From an uncultured Gammaproteobacteria bacterium (GTDB taxonomy: Bacteria; Patescibacteriota; Patescibacteriia; UBA1558; 2-01-FULL-52-15): a stretch of 64,000 nucleotides of DNA. How positions within the stretch are numbered: the stretch's first letter is position 1; each line of letters opens with the position of its first letter. The notes under the pieces were generated by a model. It did no database searches and was not told the DNA's origin. It saw nothing but the letters and a program-made list of their open reading frames with translations. Below, one piece after another: positions 691 to 51,539 of the stretch. The DNA lies in the NCBI GenBank assembly GCA_964540995.1, contig CAZIOU010000002.1, forward strand, positions 43,750 to 107,749. The letters run 5' to 3'. The position numbers and the translations under genes were made by a program.

Positions 691-698
691 ACAAATTA

Positions 699-1229: not shown

Positions 1230-1230
1230 A

Positions 1231-1776: not shown

Positions 1777-1781
1777 GGTTC

Positions 1782-4793: not shown

Positions 4794-4796
4794 AGC

Positions 4797-5939
4797 TTAG
4801 AAGCGTAGCTGTTTATTCAGATCAGTCATAGCTTCAAATTCTTCTGCTGTCAGGTAGGGTTTATTTTCCTTCTGCAATTCCTGGACAACCTGCGACAAAT
4901 TACGACTATGCTCCAAGCCGTGATGACCCATCGTTAGATAAGTTTGATATACCTGACTCGTGCGCCAAGCAGTCATGCCTTGTGCTTTGCGTGCCAGAGA
5001 TTCTTTGGCCAGATTATTGATACGTTGCAGTACTTTGGCGGCCCGCACACGCGGATCAGCATCAAGCTGACGGAATTCGTCAACTGTCATAGCAGCTAAT
5101 TCATCGATCCGACTCATCACTTTGGCAGGACGATTAGCTCGTATCGGTGCGCTAACTTTGATCGGCTCTATAGTGACTGCTCGGCGCACCTTGGGTAATT
5201 CTGAATCGTTAAAGCTAGGCGCTACTGGCTTAGGCGGAAGTATAACCGTCGGTTTGGGGGCTACTACTGGTTTCTCAACCGCTGCTTGTACTACTGGTGG
5301 TTTAACCTCGATTGGCTCCGGCATAACGGGTGATATCTCGTCTGTTTCCATCGTGCGTTCGGCGGATCCGCGGATCACTACACCGTCAGCGGCTTCAATC
5401 TTATCTTTGAGACTTTTAACAATAACCATCACTTTATCAGCCAGACTAGGATCAAATGAGAAGTCCTGAATCAGTAACTCTTTGGTAATAACGAAACTTC
5501 GCACTTGTCGGAAGAAACTTAGTAATAAACTAACAAATTTCTCCTCTTGCTCTGGAGAAAGTTTGACTTTATTCTTTTCGATCAATTTGGCAGCGATTTT
5601 CTCAATACTATATTTTCGCTTCTCAGCTGCCGCCGTCAGATACCCATTAATTTTGGCCATTTCTGCTTCCAAATCCGCTTTATCATCGGGATGAAAATGA
5701 AATTCCGCCACTTCATGCGGTTGTCCGCTGATGGTAGCTGGTAAGAAATGACTATCAACCGCTTGAGAAGCTGGTTGCTGAAAATTAGGCGTTATCACTG
5801 GCGGTGGAGTCGTCTTAGCCGGCGAAGAAACGGCTGCTAGAGCACCGTGTTGCCAAACTTTAAACTGTCCGTCGACATCCTTAACCAAAAAAGATGGATC
5901 CTGGGGAATTATGACTTCAGAATTTGCCATGGGTAGCAA
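4797..5939 (-). CDS. Hypothetical Pro-rich protein, first gene of T4SS-like block 1
   Basis: 380-aa ORF with a PVVxxPK-type proline linker. No motif recognised. Confidence 0.45.
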   Translation of the reverse strand: MLPMANSEVIIPQDPSFLVKDVDGQFKVWQHGALAAVSSPAKTTPPPVITPNFQQPASQAVDSHFLPATISGQPHEVAEFHFHPDDKADLEAEMAKINGYLTAAAEKRKYSIEKIAAKLIEKNKVKLSPEQEEKFVSLLLSFFRQVRSFVITKELLIQDFSFDPSLADKVMVIVKSLKDKIEAADGVVIRGSAERTMETDEISPVMPEPIEVKPPVVQAAVEKPVVAPKPTVILPPKPVAPSFNDSELPKVRRAVTIEPIKVSAPIRANRPAKVMSRIDELAAMTVDEFRQLDADPRVRAAKVLQRINNLAKESLARKAQGMTAWRTSQVYQTYLTMGHHGLEHSRNLSQVVQELQKENKPYLTAEEFEAMTDLNKQLRF

Positions 5940-5974
5940 AAATGCTCAAAAAATAATAGCTGTTAACAACTAAA

Positions 5975-5983
5975 TTATACCAT
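5975..5983 (-). promoter_or_regulatory. Extended -10 promoter (TGgTATAAT on the minus strand) for the block starting at 5939
   Basis: Plus-strand attatacca has reverse complement TGGTATAAT, about 35 nt upstream of the ATG at 5939. Confidence 0.45.
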
Positions 5984-6010
5984 AATTATGGCTCCAGCGG
6001 AATCCCATAA

Positions 6011-6042
6011 GCAACAAAAAAGTTCATCGCAGTGATGAACTT
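6011..6042 (-). terminator. Rho-independent terminator of the methyltransferase gene
   Basis: 9-bp hairpin aagttcatc-gcagt-gatgaactt followed by tttttgttgc on the minus strand. Confidence 0.6.
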
Positions 6043-6065
6043 TGTGCACGGATAAAATTCTTAGA

Positions 6066-7271
6066 TCAAGACGTTCTAGTCCAGACAACAATCTCCCGAC
6101 CAACGATTTGTCCTGGTCGATGATAGAGCAAAGTGCCGCGAGTCGACAATTTGGCTGCCAATGATGTCGAAGCGACTTTAGGTTTGACGAAGCTGAAGCC
6201 TAATTGGGCCACTTCATACAGGAGCGGTAAGAATTCTGTCCGCTCTCCGATGAAATAGACTGGCCAGACCATGACGACGCGTCCATCAGACTTCAAAATA
6301 GTACCTAATTGACGGAAGACAGCAAGATACAGCTGCGATAGCTCTCTTTGAATAGTCTGCAAACGTAATCCCGTGACAGCTCCTTGCAATTCTCGTGCTG
6401 GACCCAAATACGGCTCCGTCACTACCACACCTATGGAGTTGGGCGCGAGCCTGGTGGAGAGCTGTTCTGCTGAGATGGTCTGAAATCGGGCTTGAGCATC
6501 TGGATACTGCTGTTGCAACCAAGCCATATTTTTCTCCGCCGCAGCGATAGCTCGCTGATCTCGATCAGTACCCAAGATTGATGTGAAGCCTAGGAGCGTT
6601 GCTTCCTGCGCAACCGTACCGACTCCGCAGAAAGGGTCCAGCAGAGGAGCGTCATTTCCTGCTCCGCTAATATTGATCATCATTTGAGCCACCTTGGGAG
6701 GCAGCATCCCTCGTTCATCATCACGATCCGGTCGCCCATAATCACGGTTGCTATAAGCGGCAAATGGTTGCACAGCACGCGTCAAACCCAAGTAAGTCTG
6801 ACCTTTTTCTGTCACCACGACAAACTCGCGATCCAATAATTTACTTTTGGTTACTGCTACTGAAGATAAAATACCATCATTATTAGCCACCATTCGAGCT
6901 TGCTTGCCATCTGCTTGTAACCGACGTTTCAATTGCAAACCGATCTTCTGCCAGACGCGGACGCTATGAGGTTGAGAATTATAGAGACTATAGCCAAAAA
7001 CAACTTTCTTCTCATCATCAGACGATGGTAATAATGTAAGCAGATCTTCGGGTGTGATAGCATCGGGCCGTGGCAAGGTATGGACCAATTCAGCAATCTT
7101 GATCGTACCACCCAATTGCTTGATCAGATCAAGCGGTTCTACTTTTGCCCGTATAATCAAGGCCTGTGTGCCCAAACTAACAATATCTGACTTTTTGGCC
7201 TTAGTGACAGTCAGTATTTCCTCGGCCGAAAGCGCCGGAGAATGGCCTAAAATGAAGATCCAAGATTTCAT
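6066..7271 (-). CDS. Class I SAM-dependent methyltransferase with an N-terminal THUMP-like region (RNA m2G/Trm11/RlmL-like)
   Basis: Motif I is LDPFCGVGT. Motif IV appears as the unusual VVTEPYLGP, where DPPY would be expected. The probable start MKSWIFILG is at 7271; the track starts the ORF at 7328. Confidence 0.55.
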   Translation of the reverse strand: MKSWIFILGHSPALSAEEILTVTKAKKSDIVSLGTQALIIRAKVEPLDLIKQLGGTIKIAELVHTLPRPDAITPEDLLTLLPSSDDEKKVVFGYSLYNSQPHSVRVWQKIGLQLKRRLQADGKQARMVANNDGILSSVAVTKSKLLDREFVVVTEKGQTYLGLTRAVQPFAAYSNRDYGRPDRDDERGMLPPKVAQMMINISGAGNDAPLLDPFCGVGTVAQEATLLGFTSILGTDRDQRAIAAAEKNMAWLQQQYPDAQARFQTISAEQLSTRLAPNSIGVVVTEPYLGPARELQGAVTGLRLQTIQRELSQLYLAVFRQLGTILKSDGRVVMVWPVYFIGERTEFLPLLYEVAQLGFSFVKPKVASTSLAAKLSTRGTLLYHRPGQIVGREIVVWTRTS

Positions 7272-7515
7272 ATTGGCATTATAGCACATGGTTGACAGTA
7301 TAACCTCATTATGGTAATGTTGTGCCACTTAGATTTGTTATTTTGCTTGCTCGTATTACCTCGATCAAGCCTGACAATATAAGTAATCCACATCTCTTTG
7401 ATCAACGTTCAGGTAGCTTCAGTCTTTTTTATAGAGCGAAGCCCTGAGCGAAGTCGAGTTTAACTCGACAAGTCGAGGGGATCCTTAATCAATCTTTAAG
7501 AATTAAGGTTACATC

Positions 7516-7992
7516 ATGTCACACTATGAACTAACCTATATTCTGACTTCAGCTATTGCTGAGACAGAATATCCGGCTTTGCAGAAAAGCATCGCCGATT
7601 TGATCGTTTCCTTGGGTAAAGGAAGCGTTACCAGTGAGGTCATCCTGGGTAGAAAAAAATTGGCCTATCCTATTAACAAGGAAAAATACGGTCACTACGT
7701 GACGGTAGAATTTGATGCTGAAGCCGAAAGCATCAAGCAGCTGGATACTGAGTTTAAGCTCAACAATGGCTTACTCCGTCATCTAATGATCACCAAGAAG
7801 GTACTTAGCCCAGAACAGCAAGAAGAAGAAGCCTCTCGTCAGGCTAAGGTCAGAGCTCGTAAGGCAGCTGCCAAAAATACTGTCGTCGAGCCAGTAGAGA
7901 AGGAAAAAAAGCCCGAAAAATCCAAACCCAAGATCTCTCTCGATAAGCTCGATGAGAAATTGGATGAATTACTCGGACAAGAAATAAAATAA
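7516..7992 (+). CDS. rpsF: 30S ribosomal protein S6
   Basis: MSHYELTYILTS...GHYVTVEFDAEAESI is the S6 pattern. It has a Lys/Glu-rich C-terminal tail. Confidence 0.9.
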   Translation: MSHYELTYILTSAIAETEYPALQKSIADLIVSLGKGSVTSEVILGRKKLAYPINKEKYGHYVTVEFDAEAESIKQLDTEFKLNNGLLRHLMITKKVLSPEQQEEEASRQAKVRARKAAAKNTVVEPVEKEKKPEKSKPKISLDKLDEKLDELLGQEIK

Positions 7993-8023
7993 TCGAGCTC
8001 AGCTCGACTAAACTTCAAAAAAT

Positions 8024-8479
8024 ATGGATCTCAATCGTGTCATGCTGATCGGAAATGTTGTGCGCGATCCTGAATTACGCACCACCCCGTCCGGCCAGAC
8101 CGTAGCCTCTTTCTCGATCGCTACTAACTTGAGTTGGACCGATAAGAGTGGTCAGAAACAAACCAAGGCCGAATTCCACAATGTCGTGGCTTGGCGTAAA
8201 TTGGCTGATATTATTGGCCAATACGTCAAGAAAGGCAGCAAAGTCTACCTCGAAGGTCGACTGGAGACTCGCTCTTGGGATGACCAAAATGCGATTAAGC
8301 ACTATCGAACCGAAATCGTCTCTGACAATCTAATCATGTTGGATCGAGCTGGTGCACCCAGTGGCGCACCCAGTCCTCGTCCGATGATGAATAATTCCGC
8401 TCCTTCTGCCCCACAGTCTGACGAACCGACCATCAATGTCGATGAGCCAGAAATTAATGTGGAAGACATCCCCTTCTAA
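8024..8479 (+). CDS. ssb: Single-stranded DNA-binding protein
   Basis: OB-fold motifs LIGNVVRDPELRTT and FHNVVAWRKLA are present, and the acidic C-terminal tip is DIPF. Confidence 0.9.
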   Translation: MDLNRVMLIGNVVRDPELRTTPSGQTVASFSIATNLSWTDKSGQKQTKAEFHNVVAWRKLADIIGQYVKKGSKVYLEGRLETRSWDDQNAIKHYRTEIVSDNLIMLDRAGAPSGAPSPRPMMNNSAPSAPQSDEPTINVDEPEINVEDIPF

Positions 8480-8594
8480 TTAAATATCTCTGTTACTAGT
8501 TATTTGTTATTTGGGAAGAACCAAGTATCGCCCTAATAACGAGTAACGAATTCGGCCAGAGGCCGAAACGACTCATAAAAGAATAACTAACCTC

Positions 8595-8810
8595 ATGGAA
8601 AAAGAATCCAAGAAATATTGCTTCTTCTGTGTCAATGCTATCTCTAGTATTGATTATAAGAATACACAGATGCTTCAGCGCTTCACTTCTTCCTATGCCA
8701 AGATCGTACCGAAACGTCGAAGTGGCGTCTGCTCCAAACACCAACGCAAATTATCGCTCGCTATCAAACGTGCTCGATTCTTGGCCTTGTTGCCTTATAT
8801 CGCTAAATAA
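8595..8810 (+). CDS. rpsR: 30S ribosomal protein S18
   Basis: CFFC...[12 protein letters not shown]...[28 protein letters not shown] is the S18 pattern, in the conserved rpsF-ssb-rpsR arrangement. Confidence 0.9.
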
Positions 8811-8815
8811 CTCCC

Positions 8816-9373
8816 ATGCTTGGACTAAGTGAAATCAAATTAGGCACTGTTTTGAGTATTAATAATGAACCGTATCAGGTCGTATTCACTCAACACATCA
8901 AGGTAGCCCGTGGCGGCGCCACCCTACGTACCAAGTTGAAGAATTTGGTCACTGGCTCAACCTTAGAGAAATCCTTCTCTGGGGCTGACAAAGCCGAAGA
9001 AGCCGATCTCAATCGCTCCTCTGCCAACTATCTGTACCAACAGGGAGATAAGGCGGTATTTATGGACAATGAAAACTTCGAACAGTATGAATTTGACCAC
9101 GACATCCTAGGTGAGGGCATGAAATATCTCAAAGAAGGCCAAACCTGCGACGTCTTGATCTATAATGGCCAAGCCGTTACTGTCGCTCTTCCCAAGAAAG
9201 TAACTCTCAAGGTTGTATCCGCTCCTCCTGGAGTAAAAGGTGACACCAGCGGTGGTGCTACCAAGACAGTGACTATGGAAACGGGTCTAGAAATCAAGAC
9301 CCCGCTCTTCATCAAAGAAGGTGAGGACATCGTCATCAATACTGAAACCGGCGATTATGTAGCACGCGCTTAA
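8816..9373 (+). CDS. efp: Elongation factor P (Arg-type loop)
   Basis: KLGTVLSINNEPYQVV...KVARGGATLRTKLKNLVTG is the EF-P pattern, with Arg at the position of E. coli Lys34. Confidence 0.85.
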   Translation: MLGLSEIKLGTVLSINNEPYQVVFTQHIKVARGGATLRTKLKNLVTGSTLEKSFSGADKAEEADLNRSSANYLYQQGDKAVFMDNENFEQYEFDHDILGEGMKYLKEGQTCDVLIYNGQAVTVALPKKVTLKVVSAPPGVKGDTSGGATKTVTMETGLEIKTPLFIKEGEDIVINTETGDYVARA

Positions 9374-9449
9374 ACGCGTGCGGAATAGCCTGCCCCGAGC
9401 TTGTCGAGGGGTCGCTCGAGCGTAGCGAGAGACTTCAAGTCAAATAGTC

Positions 9450-9480
9450 AAAAAATCCTGACAGCTTGTCAGGATTTTTG
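9450..9480. terminator. Bidirectional hairpin terminator between efp (+) and a convergent minus-strand gene
   Basis: aaaaatcctgaca-gctt-gtcaggattttt: a perfect stem flanked by an A-run and a T-run. Confidence 0.65.
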
Positions 9481-9496
9481 GTTTATTATTAAACTA

Positions 9497-10753
9497 CTAA
9501 TTTGCTCCTTCGATGACAAAATTTTTGGCAACCAATCTAACTTCCCGCAATCTAAATTCGGCTCTCGTCATATCAATGTAAGCCGCCTGATCCCAACCAG
9601 CTTCCGAACAAATCAAGTCTGCAATCATAGCGGTTTCAGCCGGTGAATAGTGTAACTTATCTTGGAGAATAAGCTGAAAGAACAAGACAGCGCTTACCAA
9701 CGTACTATCGGGTTGCCACAGGGACCTAGCTTGATCACTGAAACGGACACTTATGAAGCGGCGAACTATTCCAATGAAGCGCAGATCCGACGAGATAAAT
9801 GTCGCCAGCTGTTTACGCCGAGCTGCCAGTACCAAGGCAGCAATTACTCGATCTTTGTCCTCCACTCCTAGAGCTTCCCAAATAATGTCGGCTAAACGTC
9901 CAGCTTGATCGCCAATCTCAATCTCGATTCCAGACACACTAGCAGAGATACGAGACAGTAAATCTTGTCCGTAGGCGCGGTACTGGTCAGTGATTCGGGA
10001 TACGTCGACAGTGGATATGGAGGGTTGCTTCGGTTGATCGGCCACAGCTTCGACACTGCCGCTGCGAACCGTAACCCGACGACCGTCAATGCTGAAACGG
10101 GCCAACGTACCTTCACCGTAGGAACTAATAAAATTTAAAACATTAGCTTTGTCCTCTGGGGGTAGATTCTTGACATTGACACTACGGATCAAGTATTGGC
10201 TTCGGGCAAGTCCGTCTCTCATCGAAGGACCCATAGCACGAAGGAAATCTTTGAGCCAATTATCTATTGTTGGGTCTTCAACTGGTCCTTGTCCCAAATC
10301 AAGTGGTTGAGCGGTTAACCACAGAGAACGATTATCACCATGTTGCTGTAGGAATTCCTCGGCCGTCGCCACGATTGCACCGTCACTCATTGCTTCTGCA
10401 ACCGGTTGCGGCATTGATCCTTGGGGTAACTGTCCACCCAGACGTTGGATCAGAGTATCGACGCCAGGTAAGTATTGTCTCATGGACCACAATTTACGAG
10501 TAGCTATGGCCAAAGTTAAAGCCCGAATATCAACCGACCCTAAGTCAAGCTTTGATAAGGCAGCCGGCAAATCAATTACTTTCTGCTCGCCAGTGTAAAT
10601 AGTCAATAATACACCTAATACTAATCTCAAGCGTGAGCCGGATAAGTCAAAATCACGAGCAATCGAATCGTTAATTTCGACCGACCCTTCGTTAAATATC
10701 AAATCTTTAAATCCCTCAGGTAATGCCTGAAGTAATTTTGTGTTCACAGACAT
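9497..10753 (-). CDS. Hypothetical protein, last gene of T4SS-like block 2
   Basis: 418-aa ORF with an ATG start, separated by a 3-nt gap from the VirB6-like gene's stop. No motif recognised. Confidence 0.45.
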   Translation of the reverse strand: MSVNTKLLQALPEGFKDLIFNEGSVEINDSIARDFDLSGSRLRLVLGVLLTIYTGEQKVIDLPAALSKLDLGSVDIRALTLAIATRKLWSMRQYLPGVDTLIQRLGGQLPQGSMPQPVAEAMSDGAIVATAEEFLQQHGDNRSLWLTAQPLDLGQGPVEDPTIDNWLKDFLRAMGPSMRDGLARSQYLIRSVNVKNLPPEDKANVLNFISSYGEGTLARFSIDGRRVTVRSGSVEAVADQPKQPSISTVDVSRITDQYRAYGQDLLSRISASVSGIEIEIGDQAGRLADIIWEALGVEDKDRVIAALVLAARRKQLATFISSDLRFIGIVRRFISVRFSDQARSLWQPDSTLVSAVLFFQLILQDKLHYSPAETAMIADLICSEAGWDQAAYIDMTRAEFRLREVRLVAKNFVIEGAN

Positions 10754-35994: not shown

Positions 35995-36234
35995 TTAATT
36001 GTAAGTCACATCGCTTCTCCGTTGTATCGAAAATATATGATACTTACCACGTCCATCAATGATTATAAATATTCGTATACTGCCGACACGGACTCGCAGT
36101 ATGTCCTTGCGGTTGGCAATCTTCTTGATATCTAGAGCAGTAAGATCCTGACTTTGGATCTGATGAATAACAGCCAGCACCCTCTGTAGTTCTTTGGTCG
36201 TCAAGCGCTGAAGAAACTTCTCGATCTTATCCAT
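35995..36234 (-). CDS. RelE/ParE-family toxin
   Basis: ILRVRVGSIRIFIIIDGRGKYHIFSIQRRSDVTY matches the RelE C-terminal pattern (RvGdyRi...ghRkdvY). Confidence 0.6.
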   Translation of the reverse strand: MDKIEKFLQRLTTKELQRVLAVIHQIQSQDLTALDIKKIANRKDILRVRVGSIRIFIIIDGRGKYHIFSIQRRSDVTYN

Positions 36235-36238
36235 ACTG

Positions 36239-36478
36239 CTATTTCTTAAGCATCCGAGTCAGAGTCTTCTCGACTTTCTCAATCGTGACACCCTTGGGGT
36301 CAATCTGAGTGAAATCAATCACTTCTTCCCAAACGCCATCATCGATATCCGGCGAGGACAATCGGAATACTGGACGAGATTTGCGAACCACCAAGAAAGA
36401 CTGACCCTTTTTAACTTTTTTGATGTAATCCTCAGTATTCTCGCGCAACTCTTTGAGACCAATTATTTTCTCTGCCAT
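36239..36478 (-). CDS. Phd/YefM-family antitoxin
   Basis: The N-terminus KIIGLKELRENTEDYIKKVKKGQSFLVVRKSRPVFRL is Phd_YefM-like. It lies directly upstream of the toxin. Confidence 0.55.
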   Translation of the reverse strand: MAEKIIGLKELRENTEDYIKKVKKGQSFLVVRKSRPVFRLSSPDIDDGVWEEVIDFTQIDPKGVTIEKVEKTLTRMLKK

Positions 36479-36541
36479 AGACTCTAAGTTAATCTTAAGA
36501 TTAACTTAAGGTAGCATCAAATTACTTTTTATGCAACCGAC

Positions 36542-37297
36542 CTAGGCTTTTGACTTATCTCTATGGTACTGCTCTAATAATGCGTTAATCACCTTTGCTA
36601 ATTGCACAGTGAGCATATAAATATCGTCAAGAACTTTTCGACCAGTTTCGTCCGTTTGCTCCGCAAGAAACCCGGATACAGCTGCGTCAGCATAATAGTA
36701 TCTGGTCTCATAAAATCCTGTGCTCGTTGACGAATACGTTGCGAACTTGGTTAAATCTCCCAAATCCTGCTCAAAAAAATGCCTTCTAAATCCTTGCGCT
36801 AGTGGCTTACCTGATTGAAAAAAATGAAATGCAACATTATTTCTAATCATTAATAACAGATGCCTTATCTTTTCAATATCAACCTCATTATATTCTTTGG
36901 TCTCCTTATCGTCGCAAATATCAATAAGTAGCGACCAGATTTTTTGATCATTACTATTCAGCTGCTGATAATATCTTTGAAAAATCGTCGAATCAATAAT
37001 TTTTCGATTTTCCGAAATTAAAAGGAGCGACTCATGTAATAAACCAATTGTGTATTTAAGAGTTTGTATTTTTAAACCAGCAAATTCACCCGCATGTTCT
37101 GAATACTCAGTAGGTTGTGGCTTTCTATAATATCTTTCGCGCCACTTATCAAAGTACACCAAACCTTTTAAGTCATTAAAAACCATTGCTAATGACAAGA
37201 AAAACAAATCTAGCTCCTGCCCAGAGGTGCTTGGTGAATCAGAAATTAATCCTTCGGGCTTTAATTTCCTCAATTTGCTATTCTTAAATTCTTCCAT
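36542..37297 (-). CDS. Hypothetical AT-rich protein next to the tRNA gene
   Basis: 251 aa. No motif recognised. Confidence 0.45.
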   Translation of the reverse strand: MEEFKNSKLRKLKPEGLISDSPSTSGQELDLFFLSLAMVFNDLKGLVYFDKWRERYYRKPQPTEYSEHAGEFAGLKIQTLKYTIGLLHESLLLISENRKIIDSTIFQRYYQQLNSNDQKIWSLLIDICDDKETKEYNEVDIEKIRHLLLMIRNNVAFHFFQSGKPLAQGFRRHFFEQDLGDLTKFATYSSTSTGFYETRYYYADAAVSGFLAEQTDETGRKVLDDIYMLTVQLAKVINALLEQYHRDKSKA

Positions 37298-37344
37298 TAA
37301 ATATACGCTAGCTAATACTCTGAAATAATCGGAGGGGAAAGTAA

Positions 37345-37420
37345 TGGTGGGCCTGGGTGGAATCGAACCACCTACTTCGATCTTATAAGGATCGCACTCT
37401 AACCGATGAGTTACAGGCCC
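37345..37420 (-). tRNA. tRNA-Ile with anticodon UAU (reads AUA); CCA encoded
   Basis: The reverse complement GGGCCTGTAACTCATCGGTTAGAGTGCGATCCTTATAAGATCGAAGTAGGTGGTTCGATTCCACCCAGGCCCACCA folds as a full cloverleaf: 7-bp acceptor stem, D stem ACTC/GAGT, anticodon stem CGATC/GATCG with loop CTTATAA, and a GGTGG-TTCGATT-CCACC T-arm. It is very similar to tRNA-Ile(GAU), including discriminator A73. Coordinates are accurate to about 2 nt. Confidence 0.85.
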
Positions 37421-39380: not shown

Positions 39381-40499
39381 CTAACTCCTAATCAACTTCA
39401 TCTGCTCTCCTAAAACCTGCAACACTTCTTTCTCTGCTTCTGGCAAAGGCAAGGCTAGCGGGAACTCTACGCCACGCTTGCTACCTTGTACTGGATAGCG
39501 AGCTAGCAACTTAGTGAGATCAATCGCTTCTCTGGCAGCGACATGTACCACCGTAGTGTCGAATTCACGCTGATAGAAAAGCACTGCAACTTGAGCTTCT
39601 GGACTGGTGAGGATCAAATCTTCACATAAATCAGACCAATTGACCGTGGTGCTGGCGATCTCATCGCGTGCTATGAAGGAATAGACGACGTCACCAGATT
39701 TCTTCAGACGAGACAAGAGCTTACCCCACAGCTTGAGGGTGGCAATATCACGAGTGCGATATAGCTTGAGCACTATATCATCGCGCTTAGCGCCAGCGAT
39801 CATCAGCTTGCTGGCTAATTGTAGCGTGTCAGGTGAGACGCGATTGGTCTGGAACGATTCCGTTGCTGCGATCAATCCGATAAGCAGCAGCTGTGCGCTG
39901 TCACTATCCAATTGTGTCTGCATCAGCTCATAACACATCTCCGTCAGAGAAGCAGCGGTGACATTAATCCAATTGAGCTGGCCATAACTACGATTATCGA
40001 GACGACGATCAATATTGATGATAGCTACTTTGGCTAACTGTTCCTGATACAAGGTATTGACCTGACCAGTACTAGCCAGATCACTAGCTCCGATCGTGAT
40101 CACGAGGTCATAAGGGAAATCAGTAGTAAGCGCTTCTACATCTTCCGGCTTAAGACTACCTTCTTTGGTCGCAAGATGTATCTCTAGATACTTATCTTTG
40201 ACCTGATACTTCAGCTCTGCCAATTTGGCTTGGTCAGTACGCACCCGCAAGACATAGTGATGTTGGCTGCGCTTATCAGAACTCGGTGTCTGAATATTCT
40301 CTGCTCCAGGTAGCCAGTGAAATTGCGACACAAGCTTATGATCGATGACTACTTCAACTTGTTTATCTTTCTTCTTGAGCCAACGATACCAAGCCAACAC
40401 TGAAGCAACCTCGTCGAAGCGAGCATCAGATCGTGTAGTTATCAAAATTGACCGACTGCGGTCAACAAGTGATGTAATCTGTTCCAATTCGCTAGTCAT
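39381..40499 (-). CDS. Degenerate DHH-family (NrnA-like) paralog in which DHH is replaced by DRR
   Basis: ILITTRSDARFDEVASVLAW parallels ILIISHRSPDGDTVGAATAL of the NrnA at 50343. INIDRRLDNRSYG parallels VNIDHHVTNTLYG, so the catalytic His-His is replaced by Arg-Arg. Confidence 0.5.
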   Translation of the reverse strand: MTSELEQITSLVDRSRSILITTRSDARFDEVASVLAWYRWLKKKDKQVEVVIDHKLVSQFHWLPGAENIQTPSSDKRSQHHYVLRVRTDQAKLAELKYQVKDKYLEIHLATKEGSLKPEDVEALTTDFPYDLVITIGASDLASTGQVNTLYQEQLAKVAIINIDRRLDNRSYGQLNWINVTAASLTEMCYELMQTQLDSDSAQLLLIGLIAATESFQTNRVSPDTLQLASKLMIAGAKRDDIVLKLYRTRDIATLKLWGKLLSRLKKSGDVVYSFIARDEIASTTVNWSDLCEDLILTSPEAQVAVLFYQREFDTTVVHVAAREAIDLTKLLARYPVQGSKRGVEFPLALPLPEAEKEVLQVLGEQMKLIRS

Positions 40500-43061: not shown

Positions 43062-43433
43062 TCAGGCGGTGAGACAGATTGCTACTGCCTGGTCTTGTGT
43101 CTGGCAATAAGAGAACATATCGCTCTTGCCCATGCCTTGCAGCATCATTTCAATATGCGGCGCTGCCTGACAAAGGACAAACTTCTTACCTCGTTTCTTG
43201 ACAAACCAAGCCAAGAGAAGACTGATCGCGACAGTAACCAGATCGATCCTATCCACATACTGAAGATCGACTATGACCGATGGTAGATCAGCCAGAATGA
43301 TCATATTATCCAGACCATTAAGCTGATCGCTTACCCTGCGTTGTGTGGCTTCAGCGGTTTCTTCTTCCCTTGCCAGCACTTCCTGCAAATGAACTACCAG
43401 AATCCTGCCATCTTTGAGCAGATCGATACTCAT
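43062..43433 (-). CDS. STAS-domain protein (anti-sigma-factor-antagonist-like)
   Basis: 123 aa from MSIDLLKDGRILVVHLQEV. STAS/SpoIIAA-like pattern. Confidence 0.55.
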   Translation of the reverse strand: MSIDLLKDGRILVVHLQEVLAREEETAEATQRRVSDQLNGLDNMIILADLPSVIVDLQYVDRIDLVTVAISLLLAWFVKKRGKKFVLCQAAPHIEMMLQGMGKSDMFSYCQTQDQAVAICLTA

Positions 43434-43670
43434 GACAACCTCTTGTGAAGGAACTAGGCTAACCAAGTGGGCTGCTGAAAGTACGCCAATTCCTACCTCT
43501 TGTCAAGACAATCACAAGGACTTTACCTTTTCGGGGACTGGGGTTAGTATGGTGGTAGGTTCACCAACCCACTGTTAGTCGAAATATTTCTTTTCTTTTC
43601 TCGGGCTGGTGCCCGAGTGTTTACAAAAATTTTCAATTTCTTTTTCTTTCTAAATATTGAACCACTGGAT

Positions 43671-46376
43671 ATGGTGATGGGTAGCGTAGATAAACAGATA
43701 GGTATATCTGATGAGGCAATTTGCAAATTGATTAGTAATTTTGATCGTGACGGCGATCGAGGGTTTGTCGCACAAAATGTTTTAGATAAATTGAGAACCT
43801 TTGTTGAGGCTGTAACCGTAAAAGCTTGCGGAGAAAATGATTATAGTTACGAAGTTTTTACGAGTAAGGCCAAGCCCTATGCTTCATCCAGGACAGATTT
43901 GAGATTTCTAATAAAATTCCATAAGTTTCTTCAGCGATCTGTTTCCCATTACCTTCCAGACGAAGAAACTTCTGAAAGGTTAATGTTGAAGTATTATGAA
44001 TACCTCTTCAAAATAAAAGTATTTTTGGATAGTAAATACGGAATCGAGGTTCTAAAAAATATAAATGAGTTCCCTATTAACACCGATCCCGCTCTAAAGG
44101 AATATCATGAAAAAATTGCTGAAAAGATAAGTAAGCCTACGTCAAATAGAACGGCTATTACTTACGATGATAGATATTATATAAAAAAAGTAAAACCATT
44201 CTTTGTAAACAACGTAGTTTATTATGAGGTTACTTTCACGACAGCTATTGATAATGTCAGCAAGTTCGAAAGGGTAATCGCTTTTACAAAATTAGATATT
44301 TCGCAAAACTATGCTGTAAAGCTTTTAGTGAGCAATGATGTCATAGAAGTTTTGGGGAAGAAGATGCCAATTCAAATCATTGATGATTGGCAAGTATCAA
44401 TCAGGCCATGTGAATTAAACCATTTCGCAGATATTTTTGGTAAACATTCAAGTATTTCAGCTGGTCTTGTAGAGTCTCGTAGATTAATGACCCTTTTAAC
44501 AAAGACGGGGCTTAATTTAGTTGAAATTGTAGAGCTACCAGATGATATTTATTTACGTTATAAGGTGGCGGTTACGAACAGGGCTAAAACTTCGCATTTT
44601 TTCGACATCTTAGATAAATGCCGTGAAGTGATTAAAAGTGACTCCCCTGGGAGGAATGTATTAAGGTACTTGTTGTATGCGCTCTGCAACAAAATTCTTA
44701 AATTCCAGTATAGCAACGAGGCTTGCAGTAAGTTGTCAAATCTATATCTTGCTTGGGGTTGTATCCCATTTGATGATATGCCCTTTAACACATCGATCAT
44801 TGAGCATAATCCAAAATTTCATGATGTAATTGATTGTATTGACCCAACAAATCGCGAGCACGAATTGTTTGCAAGATTGATAAAAAATAATACGGAGCAA
44901 AAGGGGCAGTTATATACTCCGGAAAATTCTATAATAGGCATCACAAATATCGACGGCCTAATCTCGGCTTATAATGCGAAATTATACTATAAGCACATTA
45001 ATCGAAAAATTGAGAAATACAAAAGCAATATTTACATTAAGGGTTATGAAGAAGATGCGCTACACATCATAGAGAAACTAATTCGCTTTGCTCGATCTGG
45101 AATAAAGAATTATTCCAATTCGGTGGATGCATGGCTTCAAATATCCGGTAACGGTGGTGACAGCGAAGAAAAAAAGATAATTCTTAAACAGATTTTTGAA
45201 AAATCTCGCGTTGCCATGATATATGGATCTGCAGGAACTGGTAAAACCACGCTCATTAATCACATTTCCACATTTTTTAAGGACTATAAGAAGCTTTATT
45301 TGGCTAATACTAACCCAGCAGTAAATAACCTAGAAAGAAGGGTCGATGTGGGAAATGCCACATTCAAGACAGTTGCTAAATTCTTACACGAAAAGGATGC
45401 TGAGACTGATTGTGACTTGCTGGTCATTGATGAATGTAGCACCGTTAGCAACTCGGACATGCTGGGAATTTTAAATAAAGCTTCATTCAGGTTGCTTGTG
45501 CTGGTTGGAGATGTTTTTCAAATAGAATCAATACTTTTTGGGAACTGGTTTAACATCGCGAGATCATTTCTCCCAGAAACTTCAGTATCCGAACTGAAAG
45601 ATCCATATCGTACTAATAACGAAAAACTTCTTACTTTTTGGGGAAAGGTTAGAAATATTGAAGACGATATTTTAGAGCACATCACGAAAAATCAATATTC
45701 TACGGCTTTAAATGAAACAATATTTGAACAATCGGAGGACGATGAAATTATTTTATGTCTAAACTATGACGGTTTGTATGGAATAAATAACATCAATAGG
45801 TTTCTTCAAAGTAACAACCCAAACCAGCCCAAATATTGGGGCATACATACTTACAAAGTAAATGACCCGGTATTATTCAACGAATCTGGTAGGTTCAAAC
45901 CGTTAATTCATAACAACCTCAAAGGAGTAATTGTTGGCATTGAAATCTTTAATGATAGGGTGCAATTTGATATTGCAATTGATATGTCAATCAATGAATT
46001 AGACGTCTCTAATTACGAACTAGAGTTGTTGGGAGAATCCGAAGTTGGTAAGTCGGTGATAAGATTTTCTGTTAATAAACTTCAGAGTACTGATGAAGAT
46101 GATGATGTTTCAAGTTCCGTCGTGCCTTTCCAAATTGCATATGCAGTATCAATGCATAAAGCCCAGGGTCTTGAGTACGACTCTGTTAAAGTTGTGATCA
46201 CAAACGAAACCGAAGAGATGATTACACACAACATCCTCTATACTGCAATTACTCGAGCCAAAGAAAAGTTAAAAATATTCTGGTCGCCAGAAGTGGAAAA
46301 GAAGATATTAAGTAATCTAGAAAAGAAGTTTAATAATAGAGACGTGTCCCTATTAAAAGCTAAATATAATGTATAA
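43671..46376 (+). CDS. Large protein with an unknown 500-aa N-terminal region fused to a RecD/Pif1-like SF1B helicase (AAA_30 plus UvrD_C_2-like)
   Basis: Walker A MIYGSAGTGKTTLINH; Walker B LLVIDECST; motif III VLVGDVFQIES; C-terminal AYAVSMHKAQGLEYDSV. The ORF is AT-rich compared with the neighbouring core genes. The ATG at 43671 is preferred over the track's GTG at 43617. Confidence 0.75.
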   Translation: MVMGSVDKQIGISDEAICKLISNFDRDGDRGFVAQNVLDKLRTFVEAVTVKACGENDYSYEVFTSKAKPYASSRTDLRFLIKFHKFLQRSVSHYLPDEETSERLMLKYYEYLFKIKVFLDSKYGIEVLKNINEFPINTDPALKEYHEKIAEKISKPTSNRTAITYDDRYYIKKVKPFFVNNVVYYEVTFTTAIDNVSKFERVIAFTKLDISQNYAVKLLVSNDVIEVLGKKMPIQIIDDWQVSIRPCELNHFADIFGKHSSISAGLVESRRLMTLLTKTGLNLVEIVELPDDIYLRYKVAVTNRAKTSHFFDILDKCREVIKSDSPGRNVLRYLLYALCNKILKFQYSNEACSKLSNLYLAWGCIPFDDMPFNTSIIEHNPKFHDVIDCIDPTNREHELFARLIKNNTEQKGQLYTPENSIIGITNIDGLISAYNAKLYYKHINRKIEKYKSNIYIKGYEEDALHIIEKLIRFARSGIKNYSNSVDAWLQISGNGGDSEEKKIILKQIFEKSRVAMIYGSAGTGKTTLINHISTFFKDYKKLYLANTNPAVNNLERRVDVGNATFKTVAKFLHEKDAETDCDLLVIDECSTVSNSDMLGILNKASFRLLVLVGDVFQIESILFGNWFNIARSFLPETSVSELKDPYRTNNEKLLTFWGKVRNIEDDILEHITKNQYSTALNETIFEQSEDDEIILCLNYDGLYGINNINRFLQSNNPNQPKYWGIHTYKVNDPVLFNESGRFKPLIHNNLKGVIVGIEIFNDRVQFDIAIDMSINELDVSNYELELLGESEVGKSVIRFSVNKLQSTDEDDDVSSSVVPFQIAYAVSMHKAQGLEYDSVKVVITNETEEMITHNILYTAITRAKEKLKIFWSPEVEKKILSNLEKKFNNRDVSLLKAKYNV

Positions 46377-46403
46377 AAAGAAATTGGAAAATTTTTGTAA
46401 CCG

Positions 46404-46565
46404 GTCCCGCTGCGGCGGGACAAAAGAAAAGAAACACATCGACTAACAGCGCGTATCTGGCTCCGGCTTGCTCCGTTCCTCCGCAAGCCTCCGCGTATAT
46501 TGCGCGGGTGTCCGCTTCGCGATATTATACACCCGCGCAACATCAGATACGCGCAAACGTTAGGT
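46404..46565. repeat. GC-rich nested-palindrome element inside the AT-rich island
   Basis: Hairpin gtcccgc-tgcg-gcgggac at 46404-21. Outer inverted repeat gcgcgtatctg (46449-59) with cagatacgcgc (46544-54) encloses two further hairpins: ggcttgc...gcaagcc (46465-89) and ttgcgcgggtgt...acacccgcgcaa (46500-40). It ends in GTTAGGT. Confidence 0.6.
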
Positions 46566-46591
46566 GAAATCACTCGCATATAACTAGTCTT

Positions 46592-47281
46592 ATGCCTAAA
46601 GAAAAAGTCGAAAAAACTCAAATATCTGACGATGAAGTTCGGTGGATAATGCTCCAATTTTTTTACGATAGAAATAAAAACGCTACCAGCCGCATCGGCA
46701 AAAAAGGATCGGCTGCCAAAATCAGTGACATACGAGCAGCACTAAAGAGCTCTCATGGATTAAAGAGCCAGGATGTCCAAAGTAATTTAACTTATCTGCT
46801 AAGTCAAAAATGGGTTGAAGAGATTACAATAAGTAAAAATTTCACAACCAAATCAGGCGTCGCCATACCCTCCAATACAAACTACTACATTATCAGTGCC
46901 GTTGGGATGGATAAAATTAGCGGGCCAAGTGAATTCACCAGAGACCGGTTCGAGGGTATAAAGATTGAAGCCACAGGACAAAACATCATCACTGTTGGAG
47001 ACGGAAATCAAGTAAACGCTGTGTTTGGAGAATTAAGTGAGGCTTTAGGCAAACTACGCCATGAAATAACAAAAGCAACGCCTTTGTCAGAATCTGATAA
47101 GTTGGAGGCTGTATCAGATATTGATACTATACAAGCGCAGCTCTCAAAATCACAACCGGACAAAACAATTATTGAAAGGGCGTGGGATAACATTAACAGA
47201 TTAGCCTCTGTGGTTCAGCTTGCCGATGCGGCTAAAAAAATCATTCCTATAATAGCAGCCCATCTCACCAAGTTACATTAA
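46592..47281 (+). CDS. Hypothetical protein with an N-terminal winged-helix-like region
   Basis: 229 aa. The N-terminus VRWIMLQFFYDRNKNATSRIGKKGSAAKISDIRAAL is wHTH-like. The C-terminal half is coiled/unknown. AT-rich. Confidence 0.5.
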   Translation: MPKEKVEKTQISDDEVRWIMLQFFYDRNKNATSRIGKKGSAAKISDIRAALKSSHGLKSQDVQSNLTYLLSQKWVEEITISKNFTTKSGVAIPSNTNYYIISAVGMDKISGPSEFTRDRFEGIKIEATGQNIITVGDGNQVNAVFGELSEALGKLRHEITKATPLSESDKLEAVSDIDTIQAQLSKSQPDKTIIERAWDNINRLASVVQLADAAKKIIPIIAAHLTKLH

Positions 47282-47339
47282 AGTATGTTCGCGACATCAC
47301 ATAACACCAGATATCCGATTCGCGAGCGAGATAATATTT

Positions 47340-47960
47340 ATGAAAAATAAATCAAAAAATTTATACCTTATACCTCAAATACCCGACGGGCAAAATATCA
47401 TTGGCCGTTTACTTGTAAGTATGTTTGGTGGCTTCGATGAAGTATTGGGCAAGGATGGACGAATATACTATATACTACTCTGTAGGTTGATAAACAAGGC
47501 GATATATGAGTACAGTATGGTCAATGAGTATTGTATTAAAGAAAGCACACCATCAGATGAAATATTTAGTCACAAAATTATTGATCATCTCGAAAACTGC
47601 GTTAATGCTGTACATCGGGCTAATTTACTAGCTATTGATATGGTAAATAGGAATAAATTACCGTCTAGTATCAATAAGAATCTTTTACTCCAAATCAAAA
47701 GAAAGTTAGCGAGTATCAAAGTTAAGGAAATTAGACATCGAATTGAGCACATGAATGAGGATCTCGCAAACATTGGAAAATACCCATTGAAAGGATCGCA
47801 TTCTGTGTATTTTGATGAGAAGAAAACTAGCCTTGTTATTAATAAACGTAAATTAACCCTCTCTGATTTAGCAAAGAATATTGACCTACTTCAAGGTTTT
47901 GTTGATCATATCAACATCTCCTTACCCAATAAAAGAACGGGAAATAAGTTCTATTATTAA
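47340..47960 (+). CDS. Hypothetical protein with a HEPN-like Rx4H motif
   Basis: 206 aa. EIRHRIEHMNEDL contains R-x4-H. AT-rich. Confidence 0.45.
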   Translation: MKNKSKNLYLIPQIPDGQNIIGRLLVSMFGGFDEVLGKDGRIYYILLCRLINKAIYEYSMVNEYCIKESTPSDEIFSHKIIDHLENCVNAVHRANLLAIDMVNRNKLPSSINKNLLLQIKRKLASIKVKEIRHRIEHMNEDLANIGKYPLKGSHSVYFDEKKTSLVINKRKLTLSDLAKNIDLLQGFVDHINISLPNKRTGNKFYY

Positions 47961-48116
47961 AAATTTATATTATCTCGCTCGCTCATCTACATCCATCCCC
48001 TTCTCGCACGATGTTGGCCTTCACCCTTCGCTAAAGCTTCGGGTGACAAGTACGGGACTTCTCATATCCTGGCCAGTTGTGCAAAATCGCGCTTATATAT
48101 TAGTAATAAAATTTTT

Positions 48117-48371
48117 ATGGAAAACCGAAAATCAAAGTGGGATTTGCTGAGTGATGACAGAAAAAAGGAGTGTATTGCCGAAATCGTCGCCTTCTTTCAA
48201 AATAACCGCAATGAAACCATTGGAGTTATTGCCGCTCAAGAAGTATTTGATTTCTTCATGGAGGAAGTAGCTGAAGACATTTATAACAAAGCTATTGATG
48301 ATGCTAAGACAGCAGTAAAATTGAATTTTGAAAATCTTGAAGTTGATCTAGATTTGCTATTTAATAAGTGA
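48117..48371 (+). CDS. DUF2164-like small protein
   Basis: 84 aa. LSDDRKKECIAEIVAFFQNNRNETIGVIAAQEVFDFFMEEVAEDIYNKAIDDA fits the DUF2164 pattern as I recall it. Confidence 0.45.
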   Translation: MENRKSKWDLLSDDRKKECIAEIVAFFQNNRNETIGVIAAQEVFDFFMEEVAEDIYNKAIDDAKTAVKLNFENLEVDLDLLFNK

Positions 48372-48386
48372 GTCAAAGTTCTATAG

Positions 48387-48415
48387 AAAAAGCCACCGAA
48401 ATATCGGTGGCTTGT
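48387..48415. terminator. Bidirectional hairpin at the right edge of the island
   Basis: aaaa-agccaccga-aata-tcggtggct-tgtg between convergent genes. Confidence 0.55.
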
Positions 48416-48428
48416 GCCTGTCAAAACT

Positions 48429-48782
48429 CTATGTCAGTAACGATCGTCCCTCTTTCAAGGCGTCATCTTCTGCGTCAAAGATGAAGAGATCTTTCTCCAT
48501 TCGTACATGACGATAGAGCCGACGTAATTCTTCAGACATACAACACAGCAGCAACTTAGCCTTTCGTGTAAGATGACTCCTGTGAGCATGAACGAGAGCT
48601 ACGGCACCGTCCGCAGAAACGAATGTCAGTCCACGTAGATTCACTACCACCGGTGGTACTGGCTTAAGCTCATATATTGAGTGTAGCCTCTGACCCAAAG
48701 CAATGGTGGTAAATGTATCCCAAGCAGTTTCAGTAAAATAAAGAACTACTACTCCTTCTCGATCGATCTGCTCTACGGCCAT
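48429..48782 (-). CDS. STAS-domain protein
   Basis: 117 aa from MAVEQIDREGVVVLYF. STAS-like. Confidence 0.55.
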   Translation of the reverse strand: MAVEQIDREGVVVLYFTETAWDTFTTIALGQRLHSIYELKPVPPVVVNLRGLTFVSADGAVALVHAHRSHLTRKAKLLLCCMSEELRRLYRHVRMEKDLFIFDAEDDALKEGRSLLT

Positions 48783-48923
48783 TTGAGGCTCCTTGTCGCG
48801 AGAGGTGTAAAGAAAAAGTAATCTCAGACCAAAGTACACCACTCAAGTATAGCTGTCAATCAAAAAAATGCACCCGCCGGGAAACCCAGCGGGTGCTTAG
48901 TGATTTACACGACAATCGACCGA

Positions 48924-50342: not shown

Positions 50343-51308
50343 ATGCATGACCATCAAATAGAAGCTAATGCCATCAAACAGACTATTGATCAGAGTCGCC
50401 AGATTTTAATTATTTCTCATCGGTCACCTGATGGCGACACCGTCGGCGCTGCCACTGCTCTAGCAGAGACACTTCTAACTCAAGGCAAAGAGGTGCAGCT
50501 TTTCTGTGCTGATCCATTGCCGCTCTATCTCCGCTATCTGCCCAATGCTCATCGCTATAGTACTGATGAGCGCGTATTTGATCTGCATTTTGATCTCGTC
50601 ATTGTCGTTGATAGCGGCAACTTACTCTATGCTGGTGTCGATACACTGGCACCCAAGTTATCCGGCACTCCTCCACTCGTTAACATTGATCATCATGTGA
50701 CCAATACTTTGTACGGCCACCACAATCTAGTAGTAGTCGCTGCCAGCTCGGCCTGCGAGATCGTCGGGCGACTGCTGCGTCATTGGAACATTGATATTAC
50801 TGAGCGTATGGCCAACTGTCTCATCACCGGCATTGTGACTGATACCAGCGGACTACGTAATCCCGCCACCAAGCACACAACTCTCGAAATTGCCGGCTAC
50901 CTGACACGACGCGGAGCTGATATCAATCACGTCTATCGACTGACGCATCATCAGAAAACAGTCGATCAACTTCGACTGTGGGGACTAGCCTTGTCACGAC
51001 TTAAGAAAAGCCAAACTCTGAATCTTGTCACTACCTACATCAATGACCAAGATCTCCAAGAATACGGTCTGACGGCAGACAGCTTAGAAGGTCTAGCCAA
51101 CTATCTGGCTGTGCTCCATGAGGCGGAGATCATCATGGTACTGAAGCAGAAAGACGATGTCGTCCATGGATCGCTACGCACTCCTTTCGATCATGTCGAT
51201 GTCAGCAAATTGGCGCAAGCACTAGGTGGTGGCGGGCACAAGAAGTCGGCGGGGTTTACCGTCACTGGTAAACTAGTGATGCAGAATGATAGATTGTCGG
51301 TTGAATAA
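50343..51308 (+). CDS. nrnA: DHH-family phosphoesterase NrnA (oligoribonuclease/pAp phosphatase)
   Basis: ILIISHRSPDGDTVGAATALA and LVNIDHHVTN carry the intact DHH motifs. A DHHA1-like C-terminus with GGGHKKSAG is present. Confidence 0.8.
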   Translation: MHDHQIEANAIKQTIDQSRQILIISHRSPDGDTVGAATALAETLLTQGKEVQLFCADPLPLYLRYLPNAHRYSTDERVFDLHFDLVIVVDSGNLLYAGVDTLAPKLSGTPPLVNIDHHVTNTLYGHHNLVVVAASSACEIVGRLLRHWNIDITERMANCLITGIVTDTSGLRNPATKHTTLEIAGYLTRRGADINHVYRLTHHQKTVDQLRLWGLALSRLKKSQTLNLVTTYINDQDLQEYGLTADSLEGLANYLAVLHEAEIIMVLKQKDDVVHGSLRTPFDHVDVSKLAQALGGGGHKKSAGFTVTGKLVMQNDRLSVE

Positions 51309-51539
51309 CATCGCAAGAAAGATTCAAGCTACAATAACCAATAATCAAACAATAACAAATATCCAATACCGAGAGTCGGTTTATATTTGAACTCGTCCAT
51401 TAAATATTGTTTCTTGATTATTATTTATTGTTTGAGTATTGAAACTTAAATATTGTTTGGAAATTGTGACTTGATTATTGATTATTCGTTATCCCCTCTC
51501 TCTTGACCTCTCCCTTTAATATGATAGATTAACGCTACT

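Follow-up and report, generated by a model that had tools for sequence, protein, structure and literature searches.

The lactococcal protein AbiO, a single-gene abortive infection system, consists of a PD-(D/E)xK domain and a superfamily 1B (SF1B) helicase, and its N-terminus is predicted to be restriction-endonuclease-like (PMC13064643). Nhi and Hhe, in each of which a single defence protein joins an SF1 helicase to an additional domain, follow the same general logic, and the group III Schlafen proteins of eukaryotes combine an RNase with an SF1 helicase. Other candidates, the phage-defence candidate (PDC) families, have been nominated by guilt-by-embedding; most are still untested (PMC12988326), several having been validated by now (PMC12881386, PMC12988326), and in one study four of eight tested candidates from other such families protected E. 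coli (PMC12881386). Here we analyze a 64-kb window (64,000 nt, positions 43,750 to 107,749 of contig CAZIOU010000002.1, assembly GCA_964540995.1, from an uncultured Gammaproteobacteria bacterium that GTDB places in the Patescibacteriota) in which an island of low guanine-plus-cytosine (GC) content, at about 43575..48385 on the forward strand, lies between two STAS-domain genes; all coordinates are those of the window unless a locus is named. An earlier note had read this island as a candidate novel defence system. Its four co-oriented genes, here genes 1 to 4, are where that note placed them (43671-46376, 46592-47281, 47340-47960, and 48117-48371), but gene 1 is an additional member of a catalogued, uncharacterised candidate family, PADLOC PDC-S53, a single-gene entry of PADLOC-DB v2, and not part of a novel four-gene system. 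We consider it fairly probable that the island is a patchwork in which gene 1 is a stand-alone PDC-S53 candidate defence gene that was delivered as a cassette, and, within this reading, the chances that defence is the true function of gene 1 are roughly even.

Gene 1 (43671..46376, forward strand) encodes an SF1B helicase of 901 aa that is assigned to PDC-S53 by PADLOC, PHROG 325, and its homologues; its true start is probably the ATG at 43677, giving 899 aa, since 95% of homologues start at the position of M3. A PADLOC scan, one of the checks that the earlier note had proposed, matches gene 1 end to end with the hidden Markov model PDLC05035 of PDC-S53 (E = 0, 1295.6 bits, residues 3-899 against profile positions 1-894 of 900), and PHROG 325, named ‘Dda-like helicase’, covers the whole protein at 5e-69. 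The N-terminal 500 aa, which had been taken as unknown, are covered by both profiles, while the architecture seen there, an extra region fused to an SF1B helicase as is found in defence islands, proves to be that of a full-length PDC-S53 member. Like the family, gene 1 has no conserved partner and its homologues lie in defence islands and mobile elements; nothing at the sequence level separates it from PDC-S53, which is itself a guilt-by-embedding candidate. The helicase core, which is RecD2/Dda/Pif1-like by Pfam, PDB, and motif columns, occupies aa 501-901 (45171..46376, forward strand) and scores above the Pfam cut-offs for AAA_30 (1e-18), Viral_helicase1 (1.5e-19), and UvrD_C_2 (1e-12). Walker A, Walker B, motif III (GDxxQ), and the C-terminal UvrD_C_2 region with its arginine motif are all present, and the motifs that had been quoted from gene 1 are nearly invariant across the family, the helicase motif columns being at least 90% conserved in the family alignment. 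The best solved relatives of the motor are RecD2 (PDB 3e1s) and Pif1, and residues 395-885 align with RecD2; in contrast to RecD2, gene 1 begins with a unique stretch of 400 aa and belongs with the accessory and not the core genes.

The N-terminal module is predicted to contain three parts, all encoded on the forward strand. These are a HEPN-like helical bundle (aa 1-155, 43671..44135) with conserved R42, E46, S92-H93-Y94, R103, and Y108, an OB-fold (aa 160-245, 44148..44405) with conserved Y170, Y185, E186, K198, R201, F205, and Y214, and a winged-helix-like helical region with beta-hairpins (aa 246-500, 44406..45170) in which F367 and P371 are invariant and of which the final ~100 aa align to the pre-core region of RecD2. 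The AlphaFold2 model of residues 1-505, built from 147 sequences, is of high confidence (predicted local distance difference test score, pLDDT, 93.5; predicted template modelling score, pTM, 0.89) and has six helices that end by residue 154, followed by a beta domain (161-242) and, up to 505, a helical region that includes two small hairpins. A Foldseek comparison of this model with the PDB recovered the OB fold only (probability 0.89), with zero matches below E 0.1. The conserved aromatic and basic residues of the OB-fold (Y170, Y185, K198, R201, F205, and Y214) are as expected for predicted single-strand binding. The bundle is labelled HEPN-like in our model and is not assigned to the HEPN superfamily, because it lacks the Rx4-6H catalytic motif, R42 and H93 being 51 residues apart on different helices, and because neither Pfam nor PDB profiles link it to HEPN: ten diverse N-termini of the family gave no Pfam match at E values up to 5, and the N-terminal profile found nothing relevant in the PDB. 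The near-invariant R42 usually stands in an R-N-x-x-E motif that comes without a conserved histidine. When residues 1-500 were searched against 1.8 billion representative proteins, 796 clusters were found, and because all of them are ~900-aa proteins or shorter fragments, the module appears to occur only fused to this helicase.

This domain content distinguishes gene 1 from the described systems. As in AbiO, a single polypeptide joins an accessory module at the N-terminus to an SF1B motor at the C-terminus, the PADLOC AbiO model matches the motor (2.7e-11, residues 503-662), and both proteins carry helicase signatures of the Schlafen group 3 type, the Pfam model SLFN-g3_helicase matching the gene 1 motor at 3e-7. 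However, only the P-loop half aligns with AbiO, and gene 1 has the HEPN-like bundle, the OB fold, and the winged helix-turn-helix (wHTH) region in place of a nuclease fold. No HNH, Vsr, or PD-(D/E)xK fold was detected in gene 1, which sets it apart from Nhi, Hhe, and AbiO, and neither Nhi nor Hhe is among the PADLOC models that match it; the Nhi-like or Hhe-like nuclease fusion contemplated earlier is not supported. The likeness to group III Schlafen proteins is conceptual, in that an N-terminal cleaving or sensing module is combined with an SF1 helicase that recognizes single-stranded DNA (ssDNA); the N-terminal modules share no homology, and an RNase activity of gene 1 would be purely hypothetical.

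The distribution of gene 1 is wide and its neighborhoods vary. More than 3600 homologues were scored (about 3700), corresponding to ~800 clusters at 50% identity and, among the candidates scored, more than 3600 at 90%. The best 120 are full length and 60-73% identical, and where their sources are named they are Magasanik-, Kaiser-, and Moranbacteria of the candidate phyla radiation (CPR), Virgibacillus, and Nanoarchaeota; overall the homologues range over CPR bacteria, Proteobacteria, Bacillota, and Nanoarchaeota, and hence both the bacterial and the archaeal domains. We compared ~17 homologue loci, and these have different neighbors and no obligatory partner for gene 1, as befits a single-gene family. 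The closest homologue lies with HTH, EcoRI-type methylase, and GmrSD-HNH genes, another with methyltransferases, a large serine recombinase, and a type III restriction-modification (R-M) system, and a nanoarchaeal one with Fic, Mrr, and NgoFVII-type R-M genes. One locus lies among phage-like genes and another has two integrases; in Erysipelothrix phage phi1605 the homologue is at the accessory end beside a type IIS R-M system and recombinases, on a 10.6-kb Lactiplantibacillus (L.) plantarum plasmid it adjoins a toxin-antitoxin (TA) pair, and a further copy is on a Sporosarcina plasmid. Full-length copies number 2 among 50,697 phage records and 6 among 72,556 plasmid records. This distribution is in keeping with an accessory function that is encoded by one gene and carried along with defence and mobile DNA, and it argues against both housekeeping and core phage replication roles. 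Contigs of 3.3-5.4 kb that carry homologues were considered as a possible small circular element and set aside, as they have no terminal overlaps.

The island that contains gene 1 is compositionally foreign. The GC content of 43467-48428 is 0.370 against 0.458 in the rest of the window, the lowest of all windows of the same size and 3.7 standard deviations under their mean, and sliding windows give a sharp trough of 0.32-0.42 at 43.5-48.5 kb with 0.44-0.51 on both sides, a unique minimum that bears out the sharp drop described earlier. GC at third codon positions (GC3) is 0.32-0.37 in the four genes and 0.41-0.57 in infB, rbfA, the STAS genes, clpP, and rny, so that the idea of a foreign accessory island between STAS genes is supported by both measures. 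We set its left end at a G|TT junction (43574/43575) and its right end approximately, ahead of the terminator of the right-hand host gene. The flanking genes, both on the reverse strand, encode STAS-domain proteins by Pfam (43062..43466, 5e-5, GC 0.47; 48429..48842, 5e-9), but they show no pairwise similarity by BLASTP (E ~1) and therefore are not recent duplicates; the paralogous array that had been suggested holds at the level of the domain family only. Hairpins rich in GC are present at 43601-43618, 46404-46421, and 48390-48413, and a terminator scan assigns the last to the right-hand STAS gene as its minus-strand terminator. Rfam gave zero family matches across 43-49 kb, and structured RNAs considered at 47961-48116 and 43467-43670 were rejected, the folding being no better than that of shuffled sequence. 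An independent assembly of the same sequence (Logan SRR12762304, equal to window 43474-46946) breaks 8 nt past the left STAS start codon, at the left low-GC edge, and a second time within gene 2, perhaps because the population is heterogeneous at the island edges.

The evidence for a cassette lies between genes 1 and 2. In integrons, attC sites are imperfect palindromes of 57-141 nt with an inverse core RYYYAAC and a core GTTRRRY, and an inverse core that complements the cassette’s own start is the product of G|TT recombination. A 125-nt palindrome with a branched center (46441..46565, forward strand) is our candidate for an attC-like recombination site, based on its folding, its end motifs, and its complementarity to the start of the gene 1 unit. 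Its layout is GACTAAC-AG-CGCGTATCTG ... CAGATACGCG-CAAAC-GTTAGGT, its length falls within the attC range, GTTAGGT agrees exactly with GTTRRRY, and GACTAAC has one mismatch to RYYYAAC. Compared with shuffled sequences it folds with z = -6.55 as bottom-strand ssDNA and -5.76 as RNA. In the folded strand the spacers are asymmetric (AG and CAAAC, 2 versus 5 nt), which is unusual for integron cassettes, and the L stem pairs perfectly over 10-11 bp with no bulged base. The inverse core GACTAAC is complementary to the unit start G|TTAGTC and not to the bases after it, and the pairing extends over 9-11 nt, G|TTAGTCGA (43574) with TCGACTAAC (46439-46447); the chance of one 7/7 match between an inverse core and its own start is 0.017. 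Three other cassettes obey the same rule at 7/7, one at locus L006 and two at locus L016. The palindrome shares its end architecture with the repeats of L016, which have xTAAC-AG...CAAAC-GTTAx ends, and its 3' end is 81% identical to positions 2759-2795 of locus L110. The DNA shared by the window and L110 is confined to this 3' end and to gene 2 plus 41 nt (78%), which suggests modular units.

The two loci with rule-obeying cassettes can be described as follows. In L006 (Desulfobacterota bacterium M19) a gene 1 homologue is flanked by two attC-like copies of ~125 nt (408-545 and 3533-3622), the element carrying an R-box, a spacer of 7 unpaired nt, and an L stem with a bulged base; the end of the contig truncates the second copy, as would happen in an array rich in repeats. 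L016 (Ignavibacteriales, JACPUH010000021.1, positions 1-6911) is an integron-like array with 4-5 attC-like repeats of 155-169 nt between genes, and its cassettes carry a gene 2 homologue, a 190-aa orphan, and an EcoRI-type methylase with a GmrSD/HNH gene. The two cassettes of L016 that obey the own-start rule are the one with the gene 2 homologue and the one with the methylase and GmrSD genes.

Gene 1 is also bracketed by an imperfect inverted repeat of 92 nt that is 72% complementary and exact at its outer ends. The left arm (43567..43658, outer end CTGTTAGTCGA) holds the hairpin at 43601-43618 and the right arm (46363..46454, outer end TCGACTAACAG) that at 46404-46421, one GC hairpin in each arm with the two hairpin sequences being different. 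A second, shorter bracket surrounds gene 3 (34 nt, 76% complementary), with a left arm (47317..47350) that overlaps the start codon and a right arm (47954..47987) that overlaps the stop codon, and a perfect 16-mer, GCGAGCGAGATAATAT, is present on both arms where 0.04 matches are expected by chance. The bracket scores are 50 for gene 1 and 32 for gene 3, and at most 22 for the other 58 of the 60 open reading frames (ORFs) in the window. A transposon with terminal inverted repeats was considered and rejected; the bracket is missing at 10 other gene 1 loci and there is no target-site duplication.

On this basis we describe gene 1 as sitting in what looks like an integron-type cassette, similar to those in clusters of attC sites lacking integron-integrases (CALIN), a description that leaves the rest of the island aside. 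In common with such cassettes, a promoterless-looking ORF is followed by an imperfect palindrome of 125 nt whose ends are RYYYAAC-like and GTTRRRY, the inverse core complements the start of its own cassette, and homologues occur in arrays of repeated attC-like sites. Several points weigh against the reading of gene 1 as a cassette-borne defence gene. Five phmmer queries found neither intI nor any other tyrosine recombinase in the 64 kb of the window. A single attC-like site could be defined, with no 7/7 junction or equivalent after genes 2-4. The flank complementarity of ~90 nt is longer than integron biology requires, with ~80 nt of it extra, and the gene 3 bracket is not explained by integron biology. 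Cassette junctions are found at only 2 of the 17 gene 1 loci. A scan of metagenomes with infB, using generic GTPase peptides, gave only 36-52% identity and no island-free relative. Finally, a literature search found no publication that mentions PDC-S53 and no experimental test of it.

Gene 2 (46592..47281, forward strand, 229 aa) belongs to a large uncharacterised family, as judged from its homologues, the family alignment, and its matches to PDC-M14B and wHTH models. The family has 1396 homologues of ~225 aa with no Pfam domain, an invariant ATGQNIIT.GDGNQV motif in the alignment, and a helical C-terminus that is shared with PDC-M14B. The match of gene 2 to PDC-M14B (2e-8) is partial only (residues 126-221 against profile positions 163-261), and no M14A partner was matched among the genes scanned. 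With regard to the winged-helix assignment made earlier, family members recurrently match wHTH models (MarR_2 in 22 of 54 members and the MCM_C wHTH in 19 of 54, with further matches to Nse1, HVO_A0261_N, Penicillinase_R, and Mrr_N), all of them sub-threshold, and the N-terminal part may be winged-helix-like. DNA similarity between 46591-47322 and L110 (78%, blastn) ends with a conserved 3' flank of gene 2 (47299..47322, forward strand) that contains an R''-like ACATAAC, a 6/7 match to the predicted inverse core of a kind that chance gives in about one case in three. Besides the homologue in the Ignavibacteriales array, one that is 81% identical is flanked by glycosyltransferase and pyrophosphatase genes, and another, in L103 (IMG/VR UViG_3300026519_000410, positions 3660-9869), lies amid RhuM/PDC-S05, a type I S subunit, a dual-specificity phosphatase, and PDC-S06 (AAA_13), which together are a compact defence island on a viral contig.

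Gene 3 (47340..47960, forward strand) encodes a 206-aa helical protein with only five relatives, a HEPN-like candidate that has R132..E136-H137 and IIDHLE.C motifs. The Rx4H motif recognized in the earlier note is invariant (R132-x4-H137 in five of five family members, mostly RNRIEH), and IIDHLE.C is also kept. HEPN models, including Pfam HEPN, do not match gene 3, and its AlphaFold model, at pLDDT 62.5, matches generic helical bundles only and is too weak for a structural assignment, so HEPN membership is a suggestion at the level of the motif. Relationships of gene 3 to the N-terminus of gene 1 (hhalign probability 0.4%) and to genes that adjoin gene 2 homologues were considered and not found. 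One relative of gene 3 has a full-length Shedu SduA gene on one side and a type I S subunit gene on the other. Gene 4 (48117..48371, forward strand) encodes an 84-aa protein that is a DUF2164 member, as proposed earlier (PF09932, 2e-18, 66.6 bits with a gathering cut-off of 27). The sole functional association that we found for this domain is with MctE, a DUF2164 protein from the immunity region of microcin Mcc1229 (PMC8853679). Gene 4 is not related to a 90-aa gene in L110.

We also considered that genes 3 and 4, or 2 and 3, might form a small TA or abortive-infection module that is separate from gene 1, with a HEPN-type RNase toxin encoded by gene 3 and neutralised by the DUF2164 or wHTH protein. 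This is possible, if doubtful. It would account for the invariant RN..EH where one helix of this wholly helical protein begins, for the gene 3 homologue within a Shedu/type I R-M island, for the link of DUF2164 to immunity, and for the winged-helix-like character of gene 2. However, the gene 3 model is of low confidence and the protein has no Pfam HEPN match, genes 3 and 4 are separated by 156 nt, and in L019 no DUF2164 gene or gene 2 homologue adjoins the homologue of gene 3. The wHTH/HEPN pair as such, put forward in the earlier note as a common toxin module, is not conserved, the homologues of genes 2 and 3 having other neighbors.

The main rival to a defence role of gene 1 is that it serves the mobile elements that carry it, as a Dda- or RecD-like helicase for replication, recombination, or transfer. 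The naming of PHROG 325, which spans the whole protein, the full-length copies in two phages and several plasmids, the recombinases and integrases that are often near homologues, and the combination of an OB fold and an SF1B motor, which is also a replication-type toolkit, would all be in accordance with such a role. Yet the phage copies are rare and lie in an accessory region by R-M and integrase genes rather than in a replication module, many gene 1 loci are plain R-M, Mrr, or GmrSD islands, and PADLOC selected the family for its embedding in defence islands. Moreover, the copies in the window and in L006 are isolated cassettes with no element to serve. We regard this explanation as unlikely.

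That the four genes constitute one multi-gene defence system, with the helicase as sensor or motor and its three neighbors, the wHTH, HEPN-like, and DUF2164 proteins, serving as regulator, toxin, and immunity factor, is very improbable. This explanation draws its appeal from the shared orientation, tight packing, and low GC of the genes, from the conservation of Rx4H in gene 3, and from the tie of DUF2164 to an immunity region. It fails on the comparison of loci, since none of the ~17 gene 1 loci carries genes 2-4 beside the homologue, and an attC-like site and a terminator-like hairpin lie between gene 1 and gene 2. Similarity to L110 at the DNA level spans gene 2 alone. Because the families are of unequal size (~3700, ~1400, and 5 for genes 1, 2, and 3) and their neighbors are unrelated, the four genes are not a conserved unit. 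The homologues of genes 2 and 3 lie in other defence islands with different neighbors, and the segment ~43575-48385 is best explained as horizontally acquired DNA of separately mobile accessory genes and not as one system encoded by an operon. That gene 1 is the host’s ordinary housekeeping RecD2 and the dip in composition incidental is effectively refuted, since, although its best NCBIfam match is RecD2 (5.8e-33), it scores 114 bits against the RecD2 equivalog TIGR01448 with a cut-off of 500 and by this measure is not a RecD2 orthologue, its GC3 is 0.35 compared with ~0.5 in core genes, and the family is patchily distributed across domains at 60-73% identity in varying neighborhoods.

Within the patchwork reading, we put forward a hypothetical mechanism for gene 1. 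We infer its antiphage function from its context, and the protein would most likely act as a single-protein anti-phage or anti-mobile-element factor. We propose that the OB fold and the motor load on ssDNA of the invader, for example replication or recombination intermediates, and that the motor then translocates in the 5'-to-3' direction driven by ATP. Translocation might either disrupt the invading replicon directly or switch on the HEPN-like bundle as an effector or regulator. Gene 1 would have arrived in this genome as an integron-type cassette that starts at G|TTAGTC and ends with the 125-nt attC-like site, such that the junction of the circular cassette would read ...ACGCGCAAACG|TTAGTCGAAATATTTC and the candidate empty site ...CACCAACCCACTG|TTCTATAGAAAAAGCCACC. 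Genes 2, 3, and 4 would be further foreign passengers. A more far-reaching version, which we consider quite unlikely, is that PDC-S53 represents a new class of single-polypeptide immunity factor with a Schlafen-like logic, in which the OB fold and motor would recognize invader ssDNA, a non-canonical HEPN-like bundle with a split R42/H93 site would be the RNase or signalling effector, and the family would be spread in part as an integron-type cassette across bacteria, archaea, phages, and plasmids. The idea of such wide, cassette-aided spread arises from the 60-73% identity that is maintained across domains of life.

PDC-S53 is a large and unusually conserved family that is present in both prokaryotic domains and is apparently uncharacterised. 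What is added here is a first structural reading of it as a HEPN-like bundle, an OB fold, a winged-helix region, and an SF1B motor, and the family becomes directly testable through named residues, namely the lysine of Walker A, R42, H93, and the aromatic residues of the OB fold. Phage-defence genes are reported from integron cassettes (bioRxiv 10.1101/2024.07.02.601719 and PMC12614218), and the finding of gene 1 in the window, its homologue in L006, and the gene 2 homologue in L016 in integron-type cassettes fits what is reported there of integrons storing defence genes. The island also provides a caution for the scanning of genomes, in that a tidy cluster of co-oriented low-GC genes can be a patchwork of independent cassettes.

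Several minor features lie elsewhere in the window. A second low-GC islet (35995-37420, GC 0.33-0.37) adjoins, at its end, a tRNA-Ile(TAT) (37345-37420) and contains two 79-aa ORFs, one of them Phd/YefM-antitoxin-like (Pfam 2.2e-5, under the cut-off), and an orphan ORF of 251 aa (36542-37297, reverse strand) that has an RNNVAFH (Rx5H) motif and no Pfam match; the islet may be another small insertion of the TA or abortive-infection type. A crude scan for TAAC...GTTA plus a stem proposed a second attC-like site at 51335-51491, which we rejected as a probably unrelated block of AT-rich repeats. This block (51330-51500) consists of overlapping direct and inverted repeats with units of the TTGATTATT type and sits between a DHH-family gene (50343-51308) and clpP (51540). 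Two ORFs of 320-370 aa, 39381-40499 and 50343-51308, lie on either side of the infB-to-STAS region, and the translation of the latter, read by eye, contains the DHH-type motif SPDGDT...DHH.

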